From: an uncultured Microthrixaceae bacterium
GTDB lineage: Bacteria; Actinomycetota; Acidimicrobiia; Acidimicrobiales; DATDAH01
Reading direction: 5' to 3'
NCBI GenBank assembly: GCA_963823495.1
Contig: CAWGLV010000001.1
Coordinates: 1,283,878-1,347,877, forward strand
DNA length: 64,000 bases
Numbering within the stretch: the first letter of the stretch is position 1; each line of letters begins with the position of its first letter. A model generated the notes under the pieces. The model saw only the letters and a program-made list of their open reading frames with translations, made no database searches and was not told the origin of the DNA. Shown here in pieces: positions 4,702 to 41,292 of the stretch. The position numbers and the translations under genes were made by a program.

Positions 4702-18520
<13,819 letters not shown>

Positions 18521-18543
<23 letters not shown>

Positions 18544-20972: not shown

Positions 20973-21848
20973 GTGTACCCGTCCCGCTTCGGCTACGAGG
21001 CCCCGACCGACATCGACACGGCCATCGGCCTGCTCGCCGACGGCCAGGGGGAGGCCAAGGTGCTGGCCGGCGGCCAGAGCCTGGTGCCCATGTTGAAGCT
21101 CCGGTTCGCCTCCCCCGACCTCCTCGTCGACATCAACGGCCTCCCCGGCCTCGACCACCTCCGGGTGGAGGACGACGGCTCGATCCGCATCGGGGCGCTC
21201 TGCCGCCACGCCGACCTGGAGCGCTCCCCGCTCCTCGCGGCCAAGCAGCCGACCATGGCCGCGGTCGCGCCCCTGGTGGCCGACCCGCTGGTGCGCACCC
21301 GGGGCACCCTCGTCGGCTCGCTCTGTCACGCCGATCCCCAGGGCGACTGGGCGTCGGTCGTCACCGCCCTCGACGGCCACGTCGTGGCCCAGGGCGCCGA
21401 GGGTCGGCGGACCATCGCCATCAAGGACTTCGTGAGCGGGCCGTTCCAGACCACCCTCAGCCACGACGAGATCGCCGTCGAGGCGGTCATCCCGGCGCCG
21501 GTCAACACCCCCGCGGGCGGCTACCTGAAGCTGGAGCGCCGCGTCGGCGACTTCGCCACCGCGGGTGTGGCCGTGGCCCTGGAGACCTCGGGCGCCACGG
21601 TGAGCAAGGCCGGGATCGCCCTCACCGGCGTCGGGGGCTCCACCATCGACGCGGCCGCCGCCGCCGAGTCCCTGGTCGGCGGGCCCCTGACCGCGGCGAG
21701 CATCGAACGAGCCGCGGACCTCGCGGCCGAGGCGGCCCGACCCAACAGCGACCACCGCGGCAGCGCCGAGTACAAGCGCCACATCGTGCACACCTTCGTG
21801 GTCCGCCTGCTGGGGCGCATCGTCGAGTCCGAAGAGAAGGCGGCGTGA
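20973..21848 (+). CDS. coxM: CO dehydrogenase medium (FAD-binding) subunit
   Basis: [43 protein letters not shown]...[11 protein letters not shown], the molybdopterin-dehydrogenase FAD-binding family. First gene of the M-S-L order. Confidence 0.9.
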
Positions 21849-21849
21849 C

Positions 21850-22401
21850 ATGACCAGCCTGTTCACCGAGGTCAGCCCGGAACCCGGGTCCGGGGTGGTG
21901 ACCCGACGGGTCACCCTCACCGTCAACGGGGAGCGCCGGGCGGCCGACATCGAGCCCCGTCTCCTGCTGGCGCACCTCCTGCGTCAGGGCTTCGGGCTCA
22001 CCGGTACCCACACCGGCTGTGACACCACCAACTGCGGCGCCTGCACGGTCCTCTACGACGGACAGCCGGTGAAGAGCTGCACGATGCTCGCCGTCCAGGC
22101 CGACGGCCACGACGTCAGGACCGTCGAGGGCCTGGCCACGGCCAGCGAGCTGCACCCGGTACAGGAGGGCTTCAAGCAGGAGCACGGGCTCCAGTGCGGG
22201 TTCTGCACGCCGGGGATGATGATGGCGGCGACCGCCCTGCTGGCCGAGAACCCGGACCCGACCGAGGACGAGGTGCGTTGGGCCCTGTCGGGGAACCTCT
22301 GTCGCTGCACGGGCTACCAGAACATCGTCAAGGCCGTCCTGTGGGCGGCCGCCAAGTTGCGGGGCGAAGCGGTCGAGACCGAGGACGGGAGCGTGCCATG
22401 A
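21850..22401 (+). CDS. coxS: CO dehydrogenase small ([2Fe-2S]x2) subunit
   Basis: [12 protein letters not shown] and [11 protein letters not shown]...CRCTGYQNI cysteine motifs. The stop overlaps the coxL ATG (ATGA at 22398-22401). Confidence 0.92.
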
Positions 22402-24782
22402 CGGCCGTCGACGAGATCAAGATCGGGGGCATGGGCGCCAACCGGCGTCGCGTCGAGGACGATCGCTTCATCCGGGGCCGGGGCAACTACGTCGATGACA
22501 TCGTGCTACCCGGGATGCTCCACATGGAGATCCTGCGCAGCCCCTTGGCCCATGCCCGCATCACCTCGATCGACACCAGCAGGGCCTGGGAGATCCCCGG
22601 GGTCCGCCTGGTCCTGACCGGCGAGATGATGGCCAGCCGCAACCTGGCCTGGATGCCCACGCTCTCCTATGACACCCAGGCGGTCCTCGCCACCGACAAG
22701 GTCCGGTTCCAGGGCCAGGAGGTCGCCGCGGTCGTCGCCGACGACCCGTACATCGCCAAGGACGCCTGCGAGGCCATCGTCGTCGAGTACGAGCCCCTCC
22801 CGCCCATCGTCAACCCCACCCAGGCGTTGGCCGAGGGTGCCCCGGTCATCCGGGACGACAAGGAGAACCAGCACGACAACGTGACCTTCGACTGGGAGGT
22901 CGGCGATCGGGACGGTACCGACCGGGCCTTCGCCGACGCCGACGTGGTCTCCAGGATCGCGATGCACTACCCGCGCTCGCACCCGTCGCCGATCGAGTGC
23001 TGCGGGTCGATCGCCGACTTCGACCGGTCGACCTCGAAGCTCACCGTCTACATGACCTCGCAGGCGCCCCACATCATCCGGGCCGCCGTGGCGCTCGTGG
23101 CCGAGCTGCCCGAGCACATGATCCGGGTGATCTCGCCCGACCTGGGCGGGGGCTTCGGCAACAAGGTGCCGGTGTATCCCGGCTACGTCATCTCGATCCT
23201 GGCCTCGATCCTGCTGGAACAGCCGGTGAAGTGGATCGAGGACAAGACCGGCAACCTCATCTCGACCGGGTTCGGCCGTGACGTCTACCTCGAGGGCGAG
23301 CTGGCCCTGCGCCAGGACGGCCGGATCCTCGGCGTGCGGATGAACACCCTCTCGGACCACGGGGCCTTCTTCTCCGATGCCCAGCCCAGCAAGTTCAAGA
23401 TCGGGCTGATGCACTCGGCCTTCGCCTGTTATGACATCCCGGCCGCCCACCTCACCGCCCGCGGCGTCTACACGAACAAGGCACCGGGTGGGGTGGCCTA
23501 CCGGTGCTCCTTCCGGGTCACCGAGGCCATGTACTTCCAGGAGCGCATGGTCCAGGCCGCGGCGGACGACCTCGGGATGGACCAGGCCGCGTTCCGCCGG
23601 GTCAACCTCGTCCGCGACGACGACTTCCCGCACCGAACGGCCTTCGGCTTCCTCACCGACTCGGGCCAGTACGCCAAGTGCCTCGACATCGGGCTGGCGG
23701 CCATCGACTACGAGGGCTTCCTGAAGCGCAAGGAGGAGGCCAAGGCCAAGGGCCGCCTCCTGGGCATCGGCATCTCGACCATGACCGAGCCGCTCGGCGC
23801 CGGCAACAGCCGGGAGTACGACATCCTCGGCATCAAGATGTTCGACTCGGCCGAGCTGCGGGTCCACATGACCGGCAAGGCGATCCTGCGCACCGGGGCC
23901 AAGACCCAGGGCCAGGGCCATGAGACGACCTGGGCCCAGATCGTCGCCCACGAGCTGGGGATCCCCGCCGAGGACATCACCGTGGAGGAGGGCGACACCG
24001 ACACCGCGCCGTTCGGCATGGGCACCTACGCCTCCCGCAGCACCCCCGTGGCGGGGGCCGCGGTGGCCATGGTGTCCCGCAAGATCAAGGCCAAGGCCCG
24101 CAAGCTGGCCGCCCACCTGCTCGAGGTCTCCGAGGAGGACGTCGAGTGGGAGCTGGGCCGCTTCTACGTGCGCAGCGCCCCCGACCAGGGCGTGACCATC
24201 CAGGAGTGCGCCATGGCGGCCTACAGCAACATGCCCGACGGCATGGAGCCGGGCCTCGAGAACAACGCCTACTACGACCCGCCCAACCTCACCTGGCCCT
24301 TCGCCTGCTACATCGCCACCGTCGAGGTGGACCCGGGCACCGGGGTCTGGGACGTGCTCGACGTCGTCGCCGTGGACGACTGCGGGGTGCGCATCAACCC
24401 GATGATCGTCGAGGGCCAGATCATGGGCGGGCTGACCGAGGCCTACGCCATGTCCAGCATGCAGTTCATCACCTTCGACGCCGAGGGCAACTGCATCGGG
24501 TCCAACTACATGGACTACCTCCTGCCGACGGCGTGGGAGACCCCCGGGTTCCAGCTCCACGAGGTCGTCACCCCCTGTCCGCACCACCCCATCGGGGCCA
24601 AGGGCATCGGCGAGTGCGCCACGGTCGGCGGTCCGGCGGCCTTCGTCAACGCGGTGATGGACGCGCTGAAGGGCTCCGGGGTGCGCAACATCGACATGCC
24701 CCTGCTGCCCGACCGGGTGTACGCCGCCCTTCAGGACGGCCAGGACGTCTCCGGCGCCCCGCCGGTGAGGACGGAGCCGTGA
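22398..24782 (+). CDS. coxL: form I Mo-Cu CO dehydrogenase large subunit
   Basis: Inner part of ORF 22194..24782, starting [34 protein letters not shown]. Contains the form-I active-site signature VAYRCSFR (23493-23516; Cys codon 23505-23507). Confidence 0.92.
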
Positions 24783-24792
24783 GGGAGGCCCG

Positions 24793-25377
24793 ATGCTGAT
24801 CACGACCGACTTCGAGGTCGGCCAGCCGGTCGACGCGGTCTGGGCGTTCTTCGACGACATCCCCCAGGTGGCGGCCTGCCTCCCCGGGGCGGAGCTGACC
24901 GAGGCGATCGGCCCCGACGCGTACCACGGCGCGGTCGCCATCCGCATGGGCCCGGTGAAGCTGCAGTTCGCGGGCACGGCGACGATCACCGAGCGCGACG
25001 ACGAGGCCAAGCGGCTCGTGGTCGACGCCGCCGGCGCGGACGAGAAGGGTCGGGGCCAGGCCGCCATGTTGCTGACCGCCGTGTTGTCGGCGGCGGGCGG
25101 CGGCACCCGGGTCGAGGTGACCCAGGACCTCCAGCTCTCCGGCGCCGCGGCCCAGTACGGGCGGGGCATGGTCAGCGACGTCACCGCCGTGCTGATGCGG
25201 GACTTCGCCGGCAACCTGCACGACCGGATGACCGCCCTCCAACAGGGCCGTTCCGCCGACGAGATCGCCGCCGCCGCTCCCGCCGGCGGGTTCTCCATCG
25301 GGCTGGCCGCCCTGCGCCTGGCCCTGGCCCGGGTCTTCCGGCGCTTCTTCCTGCCCTACCGACCGAGCCCGAGCTGA
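24793..25377 (+). CDS. coxG: CoxG-like SRPBCC protein with hydrophobic C-terminus
   Basis: FEVGQPVDAVWAFFDDIPQVAACLPGAE...GTRVEVTQDLQLSGAAAQYGRGMVSDV. It sits right after coxL. The tail GGFSIGLAALRLALARVFRRFF looks membrane-active. Confidence 0.78.
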   Translation: MLITTDFEVGQPVDAVWAFFDDIPQVAACLPGAELTEAIGPDAYHGAVAIRMGPVKLQFAGTATITERDDEAKRLVVDAAGADEKGRGQAAMLLTAVLSAAGGGTRVEVTQDLQLSGAAAQYGRGMVSDVTAVLMRDFAGNLHDRMTALQQGRSADEIAAAAPAGGFSIGLAALRLALARVFRRFFLPYRPSPS

Positions 25378-25389
25378 GGAGGACGACCG

Positions 25390-25656
25390 ATGACGCTCTG
25401 GTGGATCGGCAACGCCGTGCTGTTGCTGGTGATCGTCCCCGTGCTGGTGGCCCTGCTCAACCGGGTGCTGGCCGCCCTCGAACGCATCCGCGGGGCCTCC
25501 GACGACATCCTGGCCGGCGGTGTCGCCCTCGTGGGCGAGCTGGATGCGGCCCCCGACCTGTTGGCCACGACCGACCGGACCATCCACGACGTCTCGGTCG
25601 GCGCGGTGCGCTACGCCGGCTCCGTGGCCAAGCTGCTGCCCCCGAAGGAGGCGTGA
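25390..25656 (+). CDS. small single-pass membrane protein 1 of 5 (88 aa)
   Basis: MTLWWIGNAVLLLVIVPVLVALLNRVL followed by a helical tail. Lies 12 nt after coxG. Its stop shares a base with the next ATG (TGATG, 25654-25658). Confidence 0.6.
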   Translation: MTLWWIGNAVLLLVIVPVLVALLNRVLAALERIRGASDDILAGGVALVGELDAAPDLLATTDRTIHDVSVGAVRYAGSVAKLLPPKEA

Positions 25657-25883
25657 TGCCGGCTGTCGCCATCGTCACCCTGGTGCTCGCCACCCTGATC
25701 ATCGCGGCCGCGGCGTTGGGCCTGGTGCGGGTGATCCTGCACCTCGTGGCCGTCTCCCGCACCCTCGACGGGGTGGTCGGCGGCGTGCAGGCCGTGGCCG
25801 ACAAGACCGAACCCGTACCCGGGGCGCTGGCCTCGGTGAACGCCAACCTCGCGCCCGTGCGCGACTTCTGCGACTCGATCTGA
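25656..25883 (+). CDS. small single-pass membrane protein 2 of 5 (75 aa)
   Basis: MPAVAIVTLVLATLIIAAAALGLVRVILHLV plus a tail. This is the inner start of ORF 25401..25883, coupled to the upstream stop. Confidence 0.58.
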   Translation: MPAVAIVTLVLATLIIAAAALGLVRVILHLVAVSRTLDGVVGGVQAVADKTEPVPGALASVNANLAPVRDFCDSI

Positions 25884-25884
25884 G

Positions 25885-26169
25885 GTGGTGACCGCCATGC
25901 TCCCCGTCCTCGCCGCCGTCAGCGACTCCACCGTGAGTTGGGACATCGGCTACGCCATAGGCGTCATCGTCGTGCTGGTGGTCGTCGCCCTGGTCGTGCC
26001 GATCCTGGTCCTGGCCCACCGGATCGGGAACCAGGCCGAGGCCATCGACGACGCCCTGACCGACGCCGTCGAGAACACCTCGGCCCTGGCCGAGCTCAAC
26101 ACCACGATCGATTCGGCCACGGCCATCGTGGCCGGGCTCGAGCGGGGCCGGACCCGGTTGGGAGGATGA
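25885..26169 (+). CDS. small single-pass membrane protein 3 of 5 (94 aa)
   Basis: IGYAIGVIVVLVVVALVVPILVLAHRIG plus the tail NQAEAIDDALTDAVENTSALAELNTTIDSATAIV. Starts 1 nt after the previous stop. Confidence 0.58.
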   Translation: MVTAMLPVLAAVSDSTVSWDIGYAIGVIVVLVVVALVVPILVLAHRIGNQAEAIDDALTDAVENTSALAELNTTIDSATAIVAGLERGRTRLGG

Positions 26170-26456
26170 CCTTGCTGGCACTGACCGAGACCCAGGAAGA
26201 CCTGTGGTGGGGAGCGATCATCGGGGGGTTCGTGGTCGTCTTGGCCGTGGCCGCGCTGCTGACGATCCTCGTGCTGCTGGTGCGGCGCATCGACCGACGG
26301 GTCGTGGCCGTCCGTGACTCGCTGAAGGCGGCCGCGGCCAACACCGACGACACCGCCCTCATCGGCCAGACCGCCGCCGGGGTCGAAGCGGTCCTCTCCG
26401 AGGGGCTCAAGCACCACCTGTTCCTCGGCCGGGTGCGACAGCAGGTGCGGTCGTGA
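26166..26456 (+). CDS. small single-pass membrane protein 4 of 5 (96 aa)
   Basis: WWGAIIGGFVVVLAVAALLTILVLLVRRIDRR plus a tail. ATGA overlap at 26166-26169. Inner start of ORF 25938..26456. Confidence 0.58.
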   Translation: MTLLALTETQEDLWWGAIIGGFVVVLAVAALLTILVLLVRRIDRRVVAVRDSLKAAAANTDDTALIGQTAAGVEAVLSEGLKHHLFLGRVRQQVRS

Positions 26457-26812
26457 CCGATCTCGTCGTCTTCACCGTCATCGACATCGTCCTGCTCATC
26501 GCCGGTCTGGCGATCTACCTCTGGATCGTCGGCGGCCAACTGCAGCGCGTCGCCACCACCCTCGAGGAGTGCTCGGAGATCGTCCAGGAGATCGTGGCCG
26601 ACGCCGAGAAGATCGGGCCCGGGGTGGAGAGCATCAACCACACCGGCGGCATCGTGGCCGGCGCCCTGCCCCTGCTCTACGGCATGGCCGAGGACATCGT
26701 GGTCGGCGCCACCTACGAGCCCGCGCCCGACGCCGAGCGCCCGCCGGCCCGCCCCGCCTCGGGCCGCCGCCGCTCCCGGCTCACCGAAGCCGTGGGCTAC
26801 GACGCCGGCTGA
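26453..26812 (+). CDS. small single-pass membrane protein 5 of 5 (119 aa)
   Basis: LVVFTVIDIVLLIAGLAIYLWIVGG plus a helical tail and a basic/Pro-rich end. GTGA overlap at 26453-26456. Confidence 0.58.
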   Translation: MTDLVVFTVIDIVLLIAGLAIYLWIVGGQLQRVATTLEECSEIVQEIVADAEKIGPGVESINHTGGIVAGALPLLYGMAEDIVVGATYEPAPDAERPPARPASGRRRSRLTEAVGYDAG

Positions 26813-26827
26813 GCCCACCCTGCCTTG

Positions 26828-26879
26828 CGTTCTGGCGCCTGATTGAGGGGCCAGAGCACCGCAATCAGGCGCCAGAACG
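26828..26879. terminator. 18-bp perfect inverted repeat (16-nt loop) between convergent operons
   Basis: CGTTCTGGCGCCTGATTG (26828-26845) pairs perfectly with CAATCAGGCGCCAGAACG (26862-26879). There is no U-tract. The right arm overlaps the last codons and stop of the minus-strand gene. Confidence 0.5.
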
Positions 26880-27329
26880 ACCCGCGCCAGAACGAGGGGG
26901 TCCGGGGTCGCGGGTGGTGGTGAGGGGGCCGGTGGTGGGGGCGGAGTACTCGCCGATCCACTCGTCCTTCCACGCCGGGTCGAAGTGCTCGGTGTTGCAG
27001 CCGGGCCGGTAGACGGCGGTCAGTTCCTGGGCGATCTGCTGGCGGTGCGAGCGCAGGCCGCCCGGGACCTCGTAGGTGCAGATGAACACCTTCCAGCGGC
27101 TCCCGGCCCGCTCGATCCAGCAGGGCGCCTGGGGGTGGTGGAAGGGGAAGCCCTCGGTGGACAGGTCGTCGCTGTGGCCGATGTAGATCACGGCGTGCTG
27201 GTCCGGCTTCTGTTCGGGCTCGGACCGGTAGCAGATGGCGTAGACGGCGGGCCGCTCCGGGGCGGTCCAGCCCCCGAGGGCCCGAGGCCCCTCGAAGGGG
27301 TAACCGGCCAGGGAGCCGAGGCGGATCAC
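26865..27329 (-). CDS. hypothetical protein (154 aa), possible GIY-YIG-like core
   Basis: Inner part of ORF 26865..27782, starting from a GTG that overlaps the upstream stop (GTGA). PAVYAICYRSEPEQKPDQHAVIYIGHSDDL ... GGLRSHRQQIAQELTAVYRPGCN resembles the GIY / YIG / R / E / N spacing. This family call is weak. Confidence 0.5.
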   Translation of the reverse strand: MIRLGSLAGYPFEGPRALGGWTAPERPAVYAICYRSEPEQKPDQHAVIYIGHSDDLSTEGFPFHHPQAPCWIERAGSRWKVFICTYEVPGGLRSHRQQIAQELTAVYRPGCNTEHFDPAWKDEWIGEYSAPTTGPLTTTRDPGPPRSGAGRSGA

Positions 27330-27607
27330 CCCCCACCCCAGTCGTCGTCCTCGCCGATGACCTCGGCCCGGGCGACGGGCCAGTCGGGCAGGCCCGCCTG
27401 GCGGGCGGCGACCTCCAGGGCCGCCACCGCCGCCTCGACCGCGGCCTCCTCGGTCGCCGCCGCGATGACCAGTTGGGCCCCATAGGTCGTGGTCCCGATG
27501 CCCGAGGCGATGCCCTGGTGGACCGCGACGGCGTCGGCCAGCTCGACGATCTCCTCCCGGGTCAGCACCCGGTCGCCCTCGGCCACGACGGTCACGCTCC
27601 AGCGCAC
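27326..27607 (-). CDS. hypothetical small protein (93 aa), acidic C-terminus
   Basis: ORF 27326..27607: MRWSVTVVAEGDRVLTREEIVELADAVAVHQGIASGIGTTTYGAQLVIAAATEEAAVEAAVAALEVAARQAGLPDWPVARAEV. Starts 12 nt after the coxE stop. Confidence 0.55.
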   Translation of the reverse strand: MRWSVTVVAEGDRVLTREEIVELADAVAVHQGIASGIGTTTYGAQLVIAAATEEAAVEAAVAALEVAARQAGLPDWPVARAEVIGEDDDWGGG

Positions 27608-27619
27608 GGCTCGATCCTC

Positions 27620-28759
27620 TCAGCCCAGGGCCGGGAGCCGCTCGACGAAGCGCTCGAGGGCGACCAGGTCGTGGCCCGACAGCAGCTCGTCGACGTGGGG
27701 GGCGGCCACCGCCATCCCCAGGGTGTCGGGCCGCTGCCCGCCCTCGCCCAGGTTCGGGTTGATCCAGACGATCCGGTGGCACAACCGGGCCAGGCGCTCC
27801 ATCGCCTTGGCCAGGACGTCGGGGTCGCCGCGGTCGAGGCCGTCCGAGCAGACGACCACGATGCCGCCGCGACAGGTGCCCCGGGCGGCCCAGTCCCGGA
27901 CGAAGGTGGTCAGGGAGTCCCCGATGCGGGTGCCGCCGTCCCAGTCGAAGACCGTCGCCGCGGCCTGCTCGATCGCCTCGTCCGGCCGGCGGCGCTCCAG
28001 GGCCCGGGTGATGCGGGTCAGCCGGGTCCCGAAGCAGAAGACCTCGACCCGGGTGTTGGCCCGCCGGGCCGAGTAGGCGAACTGCAGCAGGTTGCGGGAG
28101 TGGTCCGACATGGAGCCGGACACGTCGAGGATGAGGATCAGCGGGCGCCGGCGCAGGCGGCGGCGCCGCCAGAACAGGGCGGAGGGCTCCCCGTGGGTGC
28201 GCAGGGTCTCCCGGACCGTGCGCCGCAGGTCGGGGCGGGGGCCGCGCTCTGCTCTGGTGGTGCGTCGGGTGCGGCGCCGGGGCGGGGTGAGGCGGACCTG
28301 GGCCATGATCCGCCGCAGCGCCGCCAGCTCCTCGGGGGTGCAGGCGGCGAAGGACTTCTCGCGCAGGAGCTCGGCATCGGAGGCCATGAGGCCCAGCCGG
28401 GCCTCCTCCTCGTCCCGTTGCTCGGCGTCGGGTCCGGGGTCGGGGATCTGCAGGGTCGACTGCGTGAGGGCCTTGGCCCGGACGGTGCGCCGCAGCGGAT
28501 CGGCCTCGTCGGCGCCCTCGTCGAGGTAGAAGCGCCGGAACACCCGGTCATAGGTCGGGATCTGCTCCCGGCGGGTCACCAGGGTGGTCCGGCCGCCCCA
28601 GTAGAGGTCGACGACGTCGGTCGGGTCGAGGGGCTCCATCGCCGCGCAGTAGGTGAGCAGGTCCCCCGATCCCACCGGGATGCCGCCCTCCCGCAGGGCC
28701 TGGCCGAAGTCGACCAGCATCCCGACGAAGGGGGCGTCCTCGACGACGGCCTCAGCCAT
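27620..28759 (-). CDS. coxE: VWA-domain CoxE-like CODH maturation protein
   Basis: PLILILDVSGSMSDHSR (MIDAS DxSxS) ... VVVCSDGLDRGDP. The N-terminal FGQALREGGIPVGSGDLLTY is typical of CoxE/VWA_CoxE. Overlaps coxD by 8 nt. Confidence 0.85.
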   Translation of the reverse strand: MAEAVVEDAPFVGMLVDFGQALREGGIPVGSGDLLTYCAAMEPLDPTDVVDLYWGGRTTLVTRREQIPTYDRVFRRFYLDEGADEADPLRRTVRAKALTQSTLQIPDPGPDAEQRDEEEARLGLMASDAELLREKSFAACTPEELAALRRIMAQVRLTPPRRRTRRTTRAERGPRPDLRRTVRETLRTHGEPSALFWRRRRLRRRPLILILDVSGSMSDHSRNLLQFAYSARRANTRVEVFCFGTRLTRITRALERRRPDEAIEQAAATVFDWDGGTRIGDSLTTFVRDWAARGTCRGGIVVVCSDGLDRGDPDVLAKAMERLARLCHRIVWINPNLGEGGQRPDTLGMAVAAPHVDELLSGHDLVALERFVERLPALG

Positions 28760-29672
28760 CGACGGCGAGCTCGTCGAGGTGGTCCCGGACCACCTCGAGG
28801 TCGTCGCGCGCCTTGACCACCGCGCCCAGGGAGTCCTCCACCGTCGCCCGGTCGAGGTCGTCGACCTCCAGCACGGTGAGGGTCTGGACCCAGTCGATGG
28901 TCTCGGCCACCCCCGGCGGCTTGTCCAGGTCGAGGTCCCGGAGCCGGTTCACGGCGGACACGACCTTGCGGGCCAGGGCCTCGGTGATGCCGGGCAGCCG
29001 GGCCAGCACGATCTCCACCTCGCGCTCGGGGCCCGGGTAGCCGACCCAGTGGTAGAGGCAGCGGCGCTTGAGGGCGTCGTGGAGCTCCCGGGTGCGGTTG
29101 GAGGTGAGGACCACGAGGGGGCGGGTCTCGGCGCCGATGGTGCCGATCTCGGGGATGGTGATCTGGAAGTCCGACAGCAGTTCGAGCAGGAAGGCCTCGA
29201 ACTCGTCGTCGGCCCGGTCGACCTCGTCGACCAGCAGCACCGCCCCGTCGCCGGCGCGCACGGCGTCGAGGAGGGGGCGTTCGAGCAGGAACTTGGGGCC
29301 GAACAGGGCGTCGACGGCGTCCTCGTCGGCGAGCTGGTGTTCGGAGAGGGCCCGGATCTGCAGCATCTGGCGGGCGTAGTCCCACTCATAGAGCGCCTGG
29401 TTGGTGTCGATGCCCTCGTAGCACTGGAGCCGGATCAGCCGGCGCCCCGACACGGTGGCCAGCGCCTTGGCCACCTCGGTCTTGCCCACCCCCACCTCCC
29501 CCTCGAGCAGCAGTGGGCGGCCGAGGGACCAGGCGACGAAGACGGCGGTGGCCAGGCCCCGGTCGGCGAGGTACCCGTCGGTGGCCAGGAGCTCGGTGAG
29601 CTCGCGGACACTCCCTGGGCCGGCACTGCCTGGGCCGGCACTGCTTGGGCCGACGTCTGGGGGTGGGGCCAC
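28752..29672 (-). CDS. coxD: MoxR-type AAA+ ATPase, CoxD-like
   Basis: Walker A LLLEGEVGVGKTEVAKALA; Walker B AVLLVDEVDRADDEFEAFLLELL; TSNRTRELHDALKRRC. Confidence 0.9.
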   Translation of the reverse strand: MAPPPDVGPSSAGPGSAGPGSVRELTELLATDGYLADRGLATAVFVAWSLGRPLLLEGEVGVGKTEVAKALATVSGRRLIRLQCYEGIDTNQALYEWDYARQMLQIRALSEHQLADEDAVDALFGPKFLLERPLLDAVRAGDGAVLLVDEVDRADDEFEAFLLELLSDFQITIPEIGTIGAETRPLVVLTSNRTRELHDALKRRCLYHWVGYPGPEREVEIVLARLPGITEALARKVVSAVNRLRDLDLDKPPGVAETIDWVQTLTVLEVDDLDRATVEDSLGAVVKARDDLEVVRDHLDELAVDG

Positions 29673-31547: not shown

Positions 31548-32510
31548 TCAACCGGCGGTCTGGTCGGCGAACTGCGCCTGACAGCCCGGGTTGCAGAACC
31601 AGACGATGCCGCCGTCCACCTCGAGGGAGAGGGTCGGCGGGGCGGCGACGACGGTCATGCCGCAGATGGGGTCGACCGCGGTGGGCGGCGGGGTCGCCGG
31701 TGCGGCGTCGGCGTCGGGGGCGGGGTCCTCGCCCGGTGGGGCGACGAGGCCGTCGACCCGGACGGCTCGCACCACCTCGGCCACGATGGACAGAGCGATC
31801 TCCTCGGGCGTACGGGCGCCGATGTCGAGGCCGACCGGGCTGTGGACCCGGGCCCGCTCGTCGCCCTCCAGGCCGAGCTCGTCGAGGACGGCGGTGCCCC
31901 GTCGGTTGCTGGCGACGAGTCCGATGAAGCCGACCCCGGCGTCGAGGGCGGCCCGGATGGCCTCGCCCTCCCCGTGCCCGTGGCTGGACACCACCACCGC
32001 GAGAGCACCGCCCGGGGCTGCCGCGGCCTCGTCGGAGCGGACGGCCCGGAAGCCCACCGTCTCGGCCAGCCCCGCCAGCGCGTCGGCGATCGGCGTGTGG
32101 CCGACCACGACCATGCGGCGGGGAGGAAGGTGGGGTGCGAGGAACAACTCGATGGCTCCGCCCGACAGGCAGGGGTTCACGACGGTACGGGCGCCGGGTG
32201 CCTCGGGGAAGTCCTCGTCGCCCTCGGGCAGGATACGCAGCAGCACGGGCTCGCCCGTGTCCAGCGCCTCCAGGGCCATGGCTCGCACCGAGCTCTCGGC
32301 ACACTGGCCGCCGACGAAGCCCTCCATGGTCCCGTCCCCCAGGATCAGGGCGGTGGCGCCGGGCCAGGTGGACGTGGGTGGCTGGGCCCGCACCACGGTG
32401 GCGTGGACATAGGGCTGGGCGGCCGCGTCGAGGGCACCCATGCGCTGGGTGAGCCGGGCCCCGGCACTCATCGGCCCCTCGACTTCCCGTGGCGGTCCAT
32501 CGTCCCCCAA
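31548..32510 (-). CDS. XdhC-family protein fused to a C-terminal TRASH/YHS metal-binding motif
   Basis: XdhC core (ATVVRAQPPTS..., RMVVVGHTPIADAL, GFIGLVASNRRG, GLDIGARTPEEIALSI). The C-terminus DPICGMTVVAAPPTLSLEVDGGIVWFCNPGCQAQF fits C-x22-C-x3-C. The start may be an internal Met. Confidence 0.8.
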   Translation of the reverse strand: MGDDGPPREVEGPMSAGARLTQRMGALDAAAQPYVHATVVRAQPPTSTWPGATALILGDGTMEGFVGGQCAESSVRAMALEALDTGEPVLLRILPEGDEDFPEAPGARTVVNPCLSGGAIELFLAPHLPPRRMVVVGHTPIADALAGLAETVGFRAVRSDEAAAAPGGALAVVVSSHGHGEGEAIRAALDAGVGFIGLVASNRRGTAVLDELGLEGDERARVHSPVGLDIGARTPEEIALSIVAEVVRAVRVDGLVAPPGEDPAPDADAAPATPPPTAVDPICGMTVVAAPPTLSLEVDGGIVWFCNPGCQAQFADQTAG

Positions 32511-37570: not shown

Positions 37571-40375
37571 TCAGCCCGATCGGACGGGAGGTCCGACCGG
37601 ATCCTCGGGGTGGTCACGGTGGCGCACGGGCGCCGGGCTGCGGCGGGCCTGCCCCAGGCCCACCCCCAGAGCGGCCAGGAAGAGCGTGACGAAGGCCGCG
37701 AGGGGGACCCACTCGCCGAGCCCGGCATAGGGCGTGCGGCCGGAGGCGAGCGGCAGATCGACGATCCAGCGGCCCGTCTCGTCGTGGTCCATCCACACCT
37801 GCCGCTCGCCGTCGGCGTCGAAGACGGCGGTCGTCCCCGACAGAGCGGTGTGCACCATCGGCCGACCGGCTTCCACCGCCCGTAGCGCGGCCAGGCTGGC
37901 GTGCTGGTCGTGGGCCCAGCTTCCCTGGAAGGTCGTCGTCGCGGTCTGGAGCACGATGAGGTCCGCTCCCCGCTCGGCGAGGCGGCGGCTCAGGTCGGGA
38001 AACGTCGACTCGAAGCACACGAGCGGACCGATCCGGAACCCCGCCGTGTCCATCACCACCAGTTCGTCGCCTCGGCGCCGGTTCTCGTCGGCCGCCGGCG
38101 TGAGGGAGGTGATCCACCCGAGCGCGGGGCGCAGGGGGATGGCCTCACCGAAGGGCACCAGGCGGGTCTTGTCGTAGCGGCTCCGCACACCGTCGGGGCC
38201 GACCAGCAGAGCCGACTTGAAGATGCCCCCCTCGCCTCGGCGGGCGTCGACGTTGACCAGCAGGTCGGTGCCCAGCGCGGTCGACAGGTCCGCGAGCCGG
38301 GCCAGGCGGGCCGGGTCGTCCTCGAGGTCGAACCCGACGCTGGACTCGGGCCAGACGACGAGGTCGAGATCCTCGCCGACGAGGTCCCGGGTGGCGTCGA
38401 CGTGGGCGTCGAAGCGGGCGGCCGGACCCTCGATCGGTCCGGTCTGGACGCCCGCCACGGTGACCTCCCTCCCGGCGTCGGGTGAGGGGACCACCGAGCC
38501 GGCCGCGACCACGAGCAGGACCAGGCCCGCGGCCAGAGCCAGGGACCGCATCCGCTGGGGGCCGGCCCGCCCGGGCGACAGGGCCAGGGCGACGGCGACG
38601 TTCACGGCCATGAGCGCGGCCGAGACGAGCCACACGCCGCCCACTGCGGCCAGGGCCCGGGGGAGGGGGTTGTCCCACTGGGAGGCGCCCAGCACCCCCC
38701 ACGGTCCGCCCAGCCGATCCCACGAGCGGATGTACTCGGCCGCCACCCACGCGGCCGGCACCAGGACCACCGCCGCGCCGGCCCGGTGGCGGGTTCCCAT
38801 GGTGGCGTGGGCGATCCGGGCCCACGGCATCCACAGCAGGCCCAGCGCCAGGCTCAGGGCCACGAGGAACACGCCCACCGAGCCGAGGAGCCAGTGGTGC
38901 ATGGCCACGAAGAAGCCGGTCCCGCCCAGCCAGCCGAGCACGCCGGCCTCGCGCCCCGACGGGGCCCGGACGACGGCCACCAGGAGCGGGACCAGGCCGA
39001 CGAAGCCGAGCGGCCACCAGCCGGCCTCGGGAAAGGCGAGCACCGGCAGCGCCCCGAGGACCACCGCGGCCGACCGCGCCGGCCATCGCCGCCCCGGCCG
39101 GGCGCGGCCCTCGCGGCCGAGGTCGGGCGCGCCGGCCGACCACGGCCAGACGGCCAGCGAGCGGGCGAAGAGCAGTCCGGCGGCCGTGAACCCGCCGGCC
39201 AGGAGCCACAGGAGGGCCTGCTCGCGATCGGGCTCCCAGAGTGGCACCAGGGCCAGGCCGGCCAGGACGAAGGCGACGTTGTAGCCGGTGTCGTAGATCG
39301 ACACCACGCGCCCCCGCACCACATCGGGTGCGGCCCGCTGGATGAGGGCGTCGGCGAGGATCTTGAGGATCTGGAAGGCCAGGGCCACCAGGCCGACGCC
39401 GGCGACGAGGACACCGAACTCGGGCTGGAAGCCGGCCACGGTGGCGACCAGGCCGGCGGCCAGGAAGGTCAGGGGGATCAGGCCGGCGGGGTGGAAGCGC
39501 CGCCCGAGCACCGGAGCGCTCCCCGTGCCGATGAACGCCCCGGCGCCGGTGACGGCCAGGGCCAGCCCGTAGCCCGAGGCCTCGAAGCGGTAGCGGCTGT
39601 CGGCGATCAAGACCAGCAGGATGAAACCGAAGCCGAGGAGCAGCCGGTGGGTCCAGACGGCGAGCAGGGGCCGACGGACATCGGCGTTCTCGGTCACGGC
39701 CCGGATCTGCTCGACGACCTCCCGGCGCAGTCGGACCCAACCGGCGGACACCGCTTCCCGCTCGCCGCCGCCCACCGCGGGCAGGCGGGCGAAGGCGACA
39801 GCGGCCGCCGCGTAGAGGCCGGCCGCGGCGATGAACCCCGCTGGTGGGGCGGCCTCGACGAAGGTCGCCCCGATGACCGCGGCGCCGAACGCCGCCACCA
39901 TCCCGCCGATCGAGGCCAGCGCGTTGGCGGCGACGAGGTCGGCGGGGCCGACGGTGCGGGGCAGGGCCGCCCCCTTGGCCGCTACGACGAAGCGGGAGGC
40001 CGAGAGCAGCACGAGCACGCCGACGAGGGCCAGGGGCTGGGAATCCAGGATGAGCACCCCGAGGGCGGAGAGGGCGACCGCCACCCGGGCGACCGAGACG
40101 AGCACCATGGTCCGCCGTCGGTCCCACCGGTCGATCAGGATCCCGGCCAGCGGCCCCACCAGCGAGAACGGCAGGAGGGTGACGGCCAGCAGCTTGGTCA
40201 GCTCCCAGGGGCTGGCCCCCGAGCCCACTTCGAACAACGCCACCTGGGCGAAGGTGATCTGGGCCAGTCCGTCGCCCGCCTGGCCGAACCACTGGCCTCC
40301 GACCAGAGCCCGCAACGGGCCGTGCAGGAGCCGACGCCACTCGCTCCACCCGGTCGGTCGCTCGTCCTCGGCCAC
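37571..40375 (-). CDS. lnt: in-frame fusion of an MFS transporter (N-terminal ~430 aa) and apolipoprotein N-acyltransferase Lnt (C-terminal ~500 aa)
   Basis: Part of ORF 37571..41257; upstream of 40375 it overlaps the ABC permease gene. MFS: LVGGQWFGQAGDGLAQITFAQVALF, IDRWDRRRTMVLVSVARV. Lnt: LAFPEAGWWPLGFVGLVPLL, catalytic triad context VVWPESS / YDKTRLVPFGE / GPLVCFES. No stop codon between the two halves. Confidence 0.8.
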   Translation of the reverse strand: MAEDERPTGWSEWRRLLHGPLRALVGGQWFGQAGDGLAQITFAQVALFEVGSGASPWELTKLLAVTLLPFSLVGPLAGILIDRWDRRRTMVLVSVARVAVALSALGVLILDSQPLALVGVLVLLSASRFVVAAKGAALPRTVGPADLVAANALASIGGMVAAFGAAVIGATFVEAAPPAGFIAAAGLYAAAAVAFARLPAVGGGEREAVSAGWVRLRREVVEQIRAVTENADVRRPLLAVWTHRLLLGFGFILLVLIADSRYRFEASGYGLALAVTGAGAFIGTGSAPVLGRRFHPAGLIPLTFLAAGLVATVAGFQPEFGVLVAGVGLVALAFQILKILADALIQRAAPDVVRGRVVSIYDTGYNVAFVLAGLALVPLWEPDREQALLWLLAGGFTAAGLLFARSLAVWPWSAGAPDLGREGRARPGRRWPARSAAVVLGALPVLAFPEAGWWPLGFVGLVPLLVAVVRAPSGREAGVLGWLGGTGFFVAMHHWLLGSVGVFLVALSLALGLLWMPWARIAHATMGTRHRAGAAVVLVPAAWVAAEYIRSWDRLGGPWGVLGASQWDNPLPRALAAVGGVWLVSAALMAVNVAVALALSPGRAGPQRMRSLALAAGLVLLVVAAGSVVPSPDAGREVTVAGVQTGPIEGPAARFDAHVDATRDLVGEDLDLVVWPESSVGFDLEDDPARLARLADLSTALGTDLLVNVDARRGEGGIFKSALLVGPDGVRSRYDKTRLVPFGEAIPLRPALGWITSLTPAADENRRRGDELVVMDTAGFRIGPLVCFESTFPDLSRRLAERGADLIVLQTATTTFQGSWAHDQHASLAALRAVEAGRPMVHTALSGTTAVFDADGERQVWMDHDETGRWIVDLPLASGRTPYAGLGEWVPLAAFVTLFLAALGVGLGQARRSPAPVRHRDHPEDPVGPPVRSG

Positions 40376-40485
40376 CGTCCCAGTCTCGCCCGCCCGGGCC
40401 CGGCGGACCCGGCCCGGGTGGGCGTCGGCGATCCCCGAGGTGTCCGCCCGCCGCGGCGGGCTCCTGGGGCCTGGTGGTCCGGCCG

Positions 40486-41292
40486 CTACGAGAGGCGGGT
40501 GATCCAGCCCTGCTCGCGGAAGCGGCGGAGCTGGCGGAGCACGAACCAGAACGCCAGGGCGACGCACGCCAGCGAGCCGGCCATGCCGACCACGAGGTCG
40601 GCGACCTGCACGGCCTCGCCTTCGACGCCGGCCCGGGTGGCCTCGAAGATCCGGGTGAGGGGGATGACCGCGGCCACGGGCTGGAGCACGCCGGGCAGGG
40701 CCTCGGGTGGGTAGAAGATCCCCGACAGGGGCATGAGCAGGACCAGCAGCCCCCACGAGAACACCTCGGCGGTCTCGCCGAACTGCAGGGTCAGGCCGAT
40801 CACCAGCAGCGAGACCGCCCAGCCGAACAGCAGGAGGGCGGCGGCGCCCACGGCCAGGATCCAGCCCGCGCCGGACGGGTCGACCGAGTAGAGGCCCAGG
40901 GCCACGGCTCCGACCAGCACGACCGACACCACCGCCCGGGCGAAGCCGATGACGAGCAGGGCCAAGCCGTACTCGAGCTCGGTCAGGGGGGTGGTCCACA
41001 GGTTGAGGACGTTGCGGGACCAGACCTCCTCGAGGAACCCGAGGGAGCCGGCCAGGGTGAGCTGCCACACCACGTGGAACAGCAGGATGCCCGTGACCAG
41101 GATCTCGACGCTGCGCTCGCCGTCGCTGAAGGCCACCCCGATCGAGCTGAACAGCAGGGCGTCGACCACCGGCAGGGCGATGAGCAGGAACCAGTGCCCG
41201 GGGTTGCGGGACTGCGCGAGGGAGAGGCGGCGGACCACGGCCCTGACGTGGTGCCACTGCACGCCGGGCCGCATCTCGACAGGGGTGCTCAC
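40486..41292 (-). CDS. ABC-2 type transporter permease
   Basis: Inner GTG of ORF 40486..42045 (VSTPVEMRPGVQWHHVRAVVRRLSLAQSRNPGHWF...), six hydrophobic segments. GTGA overlap with the ATPase stop. Confidence 0.8.
   Translation of the reverse strand: MSTPVEMRPGVQWHHVRAVVRRLSLAQSRNPGHWFLLIALPVVDALLFSSIGVAFSDGERSVEILVTGILLFHVVWQLTLAGSLGFLEEVWSRNVLNLWTTPLTELEYGLALLVIGFARAVVSVVLVGAVALGLYSVDPSGAGWILAVGAAALLLFGWAVSLLVIGLTLQFGETAEVFSWGLLVLLMPLSGIFYPPEALPGVLQPVAAVIPLTRIFEATRAGVEGEAVQVADLVVGMAGSLACVALAFWFVLRQLRRFREQGWITRLS

Follow-up and report, generated by a model that had tools for sequence, protein, structure and literature searches.

Bacterial oxidation of atmospheric CO and H2 in soils and in the sea is a major sink for both gases. 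The route by which these soluble enzymes gain access to the quinone pool of the membrane is solved only for the hydrogenase Huc, through HucM, and in part for carbon monoxide dehydrogenase (CODH), through CoxG, but not for the Hhy-type hydrogenases. A locus that bears on this question lies in a stretch of 64,000 nucleotides (nt) from an uncultured Microthrixaceae bacterium (contig CAWGLV010000001.1, positions 1,283,878 to 1,347,877; GC content about 72%), hereafter the window, in which five genes for small membrane proteins, here called S1 to S5, directly follow the coxG gene of an operon for molybdenum-containing CODH (Mo-CODH). What might such proteins do next to this enzyme? We found the array to belong to the form I cox operons of actinobacteria, in which it is widespread, conserved and unannotated, and profile comparisons identify it as the CODH-linked variant of sets of small transmembrane (TM) proteins already seen, though so far uncharacterised, in clusters of high-affinity [NiFe]-hydrogenase genes. 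A five-protein set common to CODH and hydrogenase clusters is one concrete, testable candidate for the membrane link.

Five genes coupled to coxG

All five consecutive open reading frames (ORFs) that a first-pass annotation of the sequence had placed after coxG, of 88, 75, 94, 96 and 119 amino acids (aa), are present on the plus strand. S1 (25390-25656; 88 aa), the best conserved of the five, is followed by S2 (25656-25883; 75 aa), S3 (25897-26169; 90 aa), S4 (26166-26456; 96 aa) and S5 (26453-26812; 119 aa). Each encodes a single-pass membrane protein with one N-terminal hydrophobic helix, as had been noted, for which the best 19-residue segment scores 2.65-3.49 on the Kyte-Doolittle (KD) scale; the TM helix of S5 contains an acidic residue. 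S3 would measure 94 aa if read from the GTG at 25885, but the ATG at 25897 is the more likely start since it is preceded by a GAGGTGG Shine-Dalgarno sequence and was chosen by the gene caller on the identical ENA contig. The junctions could be read directly and agree with the annotation: TGATG at 25654-25658, a gap of 1 nt at 25883/25885, ATGA at 26166-26169 and GTGA at 26453-26456, with S1 starting 12 nt past the coxG stop codon. Likewise, the GC content at third codon positions is high in all five genes (0.92-0.96, versus 0.93-0.97 in coxM, coxS and coxG). S1-S5 are real genes under selection, with dN/dS values of 0.05-0.24 relative to the nearest relative.

The preceding genes have the content of a form I Mo-CODH operon, coxM-coxS-coxL plus coxG (PF06240), all on the plus strand. 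The first gene is coxM for the medium, flavin adenine dinucleotide subunit (20973-21848), orthologs of which are located upstream of S1 in related loci at 61-98% identity, followed by coxS for the small, 2x[2Fe-2S] subunit (21850-22401), recognised from its ORF and conserved synteny, and by coxL for the large subunit (22398-24782). The active-site loop that defines form I enzymes, AYXCSFR, occurs in CoxL as AYRCSFR at nt 23496. The coxG product (24793-25377; PF06240, E 2.6e-15) consists of an SRPBCC domain and an Arg-rich amphipathic C-terminal helix, and it matches CoxG of M. smegmatis (PDB 8UDS) with an E value of 2.4e-27.

Conservation of the array in cox operons

A search with S1 retrieved 5,174 clusters at 90% identity, and the best 120 of these were 78-100% identical to the query and named only 'hypothetical', in one case, by UniRef, 'DUF948 domain-containing'. 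For a survey of the cox loci we selected one genome per species, which yielded 80 loci from Actinomycetota. These span Acidimicrobiales/Microthrixaceae, Streptosporangiaceae (Streptosporangiales), Micromonosporaceae (Micromonosporales), Trebonia, Pseudonocardia, Angustibacter, Rhizocola and Nocardiopsaceae, and also include metagenome-assembled genomes (MAGs) of Micrococcales and Mycobacteriales; the nearest are Acidimicrobiales/Microthrixaceae loci at 91-94% identity. The proteins of the window were mapped onto the loci, and only loci with enough flanking sequence were counted.

The first-pass annotation had made its proposal depend on conservation of the ORFs next to cox genes in relatives, and this is what we observed: coxG is located immediately 5' of S1 in 79 of 79 loci and S2-S5 are complete and in order in 70 of 72, counts that describe the cox linkage of S1, via which all cox-type loci were fetched, and not the share of cox clusters that carry the array. 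The two exceptions (L053 and L006) are MAGs of uncultured bacteria. A coxL ortholog, 77-98% identical, is located 5' of S1 in 66/66 loci, and convergent coxE and coxD genes are present in 47/49. The median identities to the window were 77% for S1, 60% for S2, 61% for S3, 66% for S4 and 66% for S5, compared with 66% for CoxG and 71% for CoxM. Junction lengths recur across species, with coxG-S1 mostly at 9-13 nt, S3-S4 mostly at 1-2 nt and a 4-nt overlap of S4 and S5 in 64 of 70 loci. A scan of metagenomes with P0243 added three cox-type loci of identical layout.

Since S1 is in frame with coxG in the window, and since databases contain many 'fusion' proteins, we considered a programmed read-through or a natural CoxG-S1 fusion. 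This was ruled out by the random frame relation of the two genes, which was distributed as 30/25/22 over 77 ortholog pairs. Read-through from coxG to S1 was seen in a single locus of the 80, a frameshifted long-read MAG, and most of the database fusions contain Arg/Pro-rich out-of-frame stretches; one protein, P0016, may be a genuine in-frame fusion. Many entries of 250-550 aa among P0001-P0031, from a public protein collection, are frameshift read-throughs that fuse coxG and S1-S5, or XdhC-YHS-CoxG-S1. They probably stem from long-read MAG assemblies and could mislead analyses of domain architectures.

Some further features of the cox loci were recorded. In most Actinomycetes loci (e.g. L008, L023 and L031) coxL and coxG are separated by an XdhC-like gene, whereas coxG directly follows coxL in the window and in its relatives among the Microthrixaceae. 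A second, divergent coxMSL set is located on the opposite strand 6-10 kb 5' of S1 in L006, L009, L010 and about 28 other cox-type loci. Its CoxL is 53-61% identical and also carries the form I AYxCSFR loop, such that two motifs were found in 31 of 83 loci; with this motif present and its downstream side beyond the fetched flank, the paralog is not valid as an internal negative control. Likewise, a Nonomuraea replicon was rejected as an example of an array-free actinomycete cox cluster, its only candidate being an orphan coxL-like gene. This replicon (L101, N. gerenzanensis NZ_LT559118.1, 11.85 Mb) is of chromosome size, yet filed as a plasmid in PLSDB, and its coxL-like gene has the loop AYACSFR, with coxM, coxS, coxG and S1-S5 absent nearby.

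Homologous arrays in hydrogenase clusters

An exhaustive search with S1 over 1.84 billion representative sequences gave 224 matches that form a compact family with one core cluster at 50% identity. A second tier consists of full-length proteins of about 82 aa with 35-46% identity, in which the N-terminal motif LWW(I/L)GN…P is retained; its profile matched at least 802 clusters, every one from Actinomycetota MAGs. We analysed the second-tier contexts using hidden Markov models built from our own sets of S1-S5 orthologs. One distant lineage (L086) was again linked to cox, in the order coxL-coxG-S1-S2-DUF1059-S3. All seven non-cox lineages with informative flanks contained the array in [NiFe]-hydrogenase clusters of Actinomycetota, with all five families present.

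These clusters encode large and small hydrogenase subunits, HycI, HypA-F, a NifU-like protein, a CooC-type ATPase, a TPR protein and PadR. The order is mostly S3-S4-S5-S1-S2, a circular permutation of the cox order, and a DUF1059 gene is usually next; in L092 and L094 the set is split, with S3-S4-S5 divergent from the small-subunit gene and S1-S2-DUF1059 at the end of the operon. The large subunit of L092 has the group 1h structure 5AA5 as its nearest match (E 8.8e-148), with other classes at 4e-52 or weaker. The homologs were identified with hmmsearch at E values of 1e-9 to 1e-25, and hhalign comparisons of cox-type with hydrogenase-type profiles paired the families one-to-one with probabilities of 98.8-99.8% and E values of 6e-17 to 9e-30 (for S2, 99.0% and 3e-18; for S3, 99.4% and 6.6e-22). 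The module is therefore not specific to CODH. In the window itself no hydrogenase, hyp or DUF1059 genes were found near the array, and our full-text literature searches yielded no paper in which small proteins of this kind are tied to CoxG or to a cox cluster.

Residues common to the two contexts include the N-terminal motif of S1, His83 of S4 (7 of 7 aligned hydrogenase-type sequences), the 'AL-P' motif of S5 and the acid in the TM helix of S5, which is Glu in 8 of 8 hydrogenase-type proteins. The C-terminal tail of cox-type S5, about 35 residues, is missing from the hydrogenase type, and hydrogenase-type S2 has an extension of its own. Such differences at the ends of S5 and S2 would be expected if adaptors specific to each enzyme were mounted on a common core.

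Two observations on the hydrogenase loci concern neighbours of the arrays. Just before the S3-S4-S5-S1-S2 arrays of L087 (2116-4337) and L089 (5466-7604) there are three paralogs of about 240 aa, in each of which an N-terminal TM helix is combined with long repeats of the 'INGTA…' type, alongside a conserved protein of 210 aa. The paralogs match DUF948, Laminin_II and DUF1664 below threshold only, and may be longer relatives of the helical-stalk theme. In L090 (18209-20249), genes for a MoxR-type AAA+ protein and a VWA_CoxE protein, resembling the coxD/coxE pair, adjoin the [NiFe]-hydrogenase structural genes, which hints at more accessory parts common to CODH and hydrogenase systems.

Family assignment, topology and conserved residues

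The first-pass annotation could assign the proteins to no known family, which holds true for the curated libraries: neither the five window proteins nor 46 orthologs each of S1, S2, S4 and S5 reached threshold in Pfam or NCBIfam, S3 having been scanned in its window copy. Its suggestion of a DUF948-like envelope module did not survive. DUF948 (PF06103) proteins share with S1-S5 the succession of N-terminal TM helix and helical tail, but no member of the array reaches the gathering threshold of 37.2 bits and S1 is without any match. The highest window score is 14.5 bits for S2, and sub-threshold matches were obtained for 11 of 46 S2 orthologs (best E 0.0079), for none of 46 S1 orthologs and for one S5 ortholog (E 0.39); DUF948 was not among the top families for S4 orthologs, and S3 of the window was unmatched. 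We also rejected S4 as a member of ATP-synt_B (ATP synthase b), OAD_gamma or VirB8, for which matches were below the Pfam threshold (best E 0.0011-0.0046) and confined to the TM and helix region; these are explained by the common architecture of a TM segment plus a long helix alone.

In all five families Lys and Arg are close to zero on the N-terminal side of the TM helix and average 1.1-4.1 on the C-terminal side. By the positive-inside rule, the proteins are therefore predicted to have the N-terminus outside and the tail in the cytoplasm, together with CODH and CoxG. The tails contain 17-25% charged residues and 55-67% A, G, V, L, I or T, a composition that looks more like that of helices packed in a bundle than of solvent-exposed coiled coils. 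An AlphaFold2 model of S1 from a diverse alignment (mean predicted local distance difference test score, pLDDT, 86) contains a helix at residues 2-52, comprising the TM segment and an extension, and a second helix at 54-82; the break falls at a conserved Val-Pro. A Foldseek search of the PDB with this model gave no match.

Near-invariant motifs were found in all five families. They are LWWIGN…LLNRVLAALERIR…GG…GAVRYAGSVAKLL in S1, His29 (78/78), located at the membrane boundary, and Cys72 (…VRDFC; 72/78) in S2, a C-terminal GLxRGRxRLGG in S3, EGLxHHLFLGRV with His83 and His84 each in 73/73 in S4, and NxTGGxVAGALPLLYGMAE in S5, which in addition has the cox-specific tail RPASGRRRSRL…VGY. The acid in the S5 TM helix is D/E in 48 of 67 cox-type sequences and Val in 15. 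The earlier statement that Cys/His cofactor motifs are lacking is correct in that no canonical motif is present, but is too strong, since His residues in S2 and S4 and Cys72 in S2 are invariant or nearly so. The suggestion that all five are distant paralogs is partly supported by the profiles: S3 and S4 match each other at 97% probability (E 9.5e-11) with cox-type profiles alone, while S2~S5 (about 95%) and S1~S3/S4 (about 90%) surface only when hydrogenase-type profiles are used.

The C-terminus of CoxG is also conserved within the clade. It reads G-L-R-A-A-R-M-A-L-x-R-V-F-R-R-F-F-L-P-Y, with key positions retained in 73-75 of 75 orthologs, and the 'RRFF' motif is retained even in the distant L086. 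The maximum 19-residue KD value over the last 45 residues is 0.55-1.64 (median 1.09), with 4-5 conserved Arg, and by this hydropathy measure the helix seems too polar to cross the membrane by itself. A basic, aromatic and amphipathic stretch, which resembles that of CoxG loosely, also forms the C-terminus of the small hydrogenase subunits encoded in S-linked clusters.

Genes around the cox operon

A hairpin with 24-nt arms and a 4-nt loop (26828-26879, no strand assigned) is located 16 nt past the S5 stop codon, between the cox operon and a convergent unit on the minus strand. Its centroid fold has an energy of -41.6 kcal/mol (z -4.9), equalled in none of 200 shuffles. The hairpin is probably a terminator common to both convergent units; lacking a T-run, it was passed over by a scan for consensus terminators.

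The convergent accessory unit (27326-29672, minus strand) consists of coxD (28752-29672; MoxR AAA+), coxE (27620-28759; vWA) and, just downstream of coxE, a gene for a 93-aa non-membrane protein (27326-27607) that is conserved in most related loci at 51-89% identity. Beside the latter is an ORF of 154 aa (26865-27329, minus strand), and neither this nor the 93-aa protein had a match in Pfam. In a wider sense the convergent unit also comprises this 154-aa ORF and an XdhC-like gene. An XdhC-like protein encoded at 31548-32510 (minus strand) has a Cys-rich C-terminus (…DPICGMTV…FCNPGCQ…) that resembles a metal-binding domain of the YHS/TRASH type; PF04945 (YHS) and PF13478 are listed for two related read-through products, P0015 and P0022. 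Elsewhere in the window, a plus-strand ORF of 1,888 aa (12877-18543) seemingly fuses biotin carboxylase, biotin-carrier and carboxyltransferase regions into a single acyl-CoA carboxylase-like chain. A minus-strand ORF of 1,228 aa (37571-41257) for a membrane protein seemingly combines a domain like those of the major facilitator superfamily with an apolipoprotein N-acyltransferase-like domain, and it gives an ordinary explanation for the strong positive AT skew at 38-41 kb.

A proposed scaffold between CODH and the membrane

In our preferred reading, for which belief and doubt are evenly balanced, S1-S5 constitute a membrane scaffold that couples cytoplasmic Mo-CODH and CoxG to the membrane and its menaquinone pool. 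The five proteins, co-transcribed and translationally coupled with coxMSLG, would be subunits of a small hetero-oligomeric complex in the inner membrane, each inserted such that the N-terminus is outside and the helical tail reaches into the cytoplasm. The tails could bundle into a stalk or scaffold on the cytoplasmic face and thereby keep the soluble Mo-CODH and CoxG at the membrane, such that electrons from CO could pass to menaquinone. The likeliest contact would be the conserved Arg-rich C-terminal helix of CoxG. Homologous sets of five would do the equal job for high-affinity [NiFe]-hydrogenases, and enzyme-specific C-terminal tails on a common core, such as the cox-only tail of S5, may provide the specificity. 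CODH and hydrogenase both have to deliver electrons to menaquinone in the membrane (Kropp et al. 2025, PMC12202499; Cordero 2019, bioRxiv 769216), and CoxG is a menaquinone shuttle that is said to be tethered by its C-terminal helix (PMC12202499). A docking or anchor complex for CODH, as the first-pass annotation had proposed, is favoured by the synteny with coxG, the predicted N-out/C-in topology and the hydrogenase-linked sets, proteins of which kind have been modelled by others as a membrane scaffold (bioRxiv 10.1101/2025.11.03.686391), and a role in coupling by the fact that CODH and hydrogenase, with different cofactors, have the same electron acceptor at the same place. We infer the formation of a complex, its binding partner and its role in membrane or quinone coupling.

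Several observations weigh against a scaffold built around CoxG. No CoxG was found in the hydrogenase clusters with S1-S5 homologs, and CoxG is therefore not the universal partner. On the canonical cox plasmid of O. carboxidovorans neither S1 nor S4 was detected, and in M. smegmatis coxG (MSMEG_0749) is placed three locus tags past coxL (MSMEG_0746) (PMC6794299); the module is thus not essential to CoxG in general. S1 and S4 likewise went undetected in some 18 further form I cox clusters on plasmids. A tblastn search with both over 72,556 plasmids left a lead from plasmid pAO1 unmatched, where a nicotine-induced DUF948 protein is encoded near a Mo-hydroxylase (PMC6214936). Furthermore, the loci were retrieved via S1, as noted above, and in a model of the CoxG-S1 fusion P0016 the C-terminal helix of CoxG and much of S1 have pLDDT values <50. 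Finally, the arrays have maturation genes as neighbours (hyp, NifU-like and CooC genes in one context, coxD and coxE in the other), which also fits a role in assembly.

In such a role, which we consider quite improbable, a five-protein membrane complex would insert or deliver metal cofactors or chaperone assembly of the metalloenzyme instead of anchoring the finished enzyme. The list of maturation neighbours extends to the XdhC-like gene here and to HypA-F and HycI in the hydrogenase clusters, and a function of this kind would suit the His and Cys residues of S2 (H29 and C72) and S4 (H83 and H84) as well as DUF1059, a small Cys-containing protein that is often the sixth partner. However, the cofactors of the two enzymes, MoCu-MCD and NiFe(CN)2CO, are unrelated, and one common metal-delivery device is therefore hard to picture. 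Among the aligned sequences only His83 of S4 occurs in both contexts, H29 and C72 of S2 being cox-specific, and in the window the array is coupled to the structural genes coxMSLG, not to the convergent coxD and coxE. The bundled helices might alternatively form a hydrophobic tube through which menaquinone moves between bilayer and enzyme or to CoxG, by analogy with the HucM stalk. The low charge of the tails and their richness in small aliphatic residues agree with this idea, as do the description of the AlphaFold models of HylTM1-5 as 'tube-like' with possible electron transfer to quinone (bioRxiv 10.1101/2025.11.03.686391), the extraction of menaquinone by a protein stalk in Huc (PMC10017518) and the shuttle function of CoxG (PMC12202499). 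The same function of CoxG may make a second conduit for CODH redundant, and no quinone-binding motif was identified in S1-S5; we regard the conduit as unlikely.

An element through which protons or ions are conducted or sensed, tying enzyme activity to membrane energisation, would account for the acid inside the TM helix of S5 and for S2 His29 at the membrane boundary, and the activities of Hhy and Huc respond to collapse of the proton motive force (bioRxiv 769216). Single-pass subunits with few polar TM residues would make a poor channel, though, the S5 acid is replaced by Val in the 15 cox-type sequences mentioned above, and no similarity to known ion-conducting families was found with Pfam, NCBIfam or Foldseek of S1, which makes this explanation very unlikely. 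It is hardly credible that S1-S5 constitute a generic envelope or stress module, DUF948-like and under the control of PadR or sigma/anti-sigma factors, which accompanies the operons as a passenger without taking a direct part in the oxidation of CO or H2. In its favour are weak similarities to DUF948, seen for S2 and for the proteins of about 240 aa beside the hydrogenase-type arrays, and the PadR and sigma/anti-sigma genes near these arrays; these are set against a linkage that is near-absolute (79/79 at coxG; 7/7 non-cox lineages in hydrogenase clusters), translational coupling to coxG, conservation reported as equal to or above that of CoxG and CoxM, and unmet Pfam thresholds.

The scaffold reading can be widened: S1-S5 and their hydrogenase-linked homologs may form a five-subunit membrane stalk, perhaps one that conducts menaquinone, which acts as a universal trace-gas coupling module for two unrelated oxidoreductases of atmospheric gases. 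This is a tentative idea that we rather doubt, and the same holds for its details, in which the module would plug into Mo-CODH via CoxG and into high-affinity [NiFe]-hydrogenase via the small subunit. Hhy and Huc are membrane-associated although they are without TM regions (Cordero 2019, bioRxiv 769216), and a universal module, if it exists, would explain how enzymes that lack TM segments become attached to the membrane and supply the respiratory chain. For CODH, our results suggest a dedicated membrane partner with which CoxG works in many Actinomycetota. The five unannotated families defined here, of which S1 alone comprises >5,000 clusters at 90% identity, could enter annotation resources and serve as markers for trace-gas oxidation clusters in metagenomes.

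Comparison with known systems

The known route of Mo-CODH to the membrane and menaquinone is the C-terminal anchor of CoxG (Kropp et al. 2025, PMC12202499; Pelzmann et al. 2014, PMC4240915). The C-terminus of M. smegmatis CoxG is predicted to be a TM helix, whereas that of the window clade is an Arg-rich amphipathic helix; and S1-S5 are separate proteins, encoded immediately after coxG, that are undescribed in these two studies. Huc reaches menaquinone through the HucM stalk (Grinter et al. 2023, PMC10017518). HucM is likewise a small accessory protein, through which a soluble enzyme that oxidises an atmospheric gas is tied to the membrane and can reach menaquinone, but the analogy is functional only and HucM is a single protein that forms a homo-oligomeric stalk.

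Five short TM proteins, HylTM1-5, have been described from group 1l [NiFe]-hydrogenase clusters (Ortiz et al., bioRxiv 10.1101/2020.08.06.239558), and their AlphaFold models form a tube-like membrane scaffold (bioRxiv 10.1101/2025.11.03.686391). The likeness to S1-S5 is one of architecture: five consecutive short single-TM proteins within the cluster of an atmospheric trace-gas oxidiser. The HylTM genes are located between HylS and HylL in Hymenobacter roseosalivarius, whereas S1-S5 are flanked by coxG and the terminator-like hairpin, and the hydrogenase-linked sets that match S1-S5 belong to group 1h/1m-like clusters, not to group 1l. Group 1m clusters have been reported to encode two small single-TM proteins of 82-92 aa together with DUF1059 (Ray et al. 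2022, PMC9561532). The window differs in having neither DUF1059 nor a hydrogenase, but the group 1m content (HycI/HybD, NifU-like, CooC, TPR, BirA and DUF1059) is found in L090-L095, L099 and L100, and the two small proteins in these loci are S1- and S2-like with E values of 1e-13 to 1e-25. The published description of group 1m is of two small proteins, whereas the same clusters also contained homologs of S3-S5, placed either divergently 5' of the small subunit or directly before S1.

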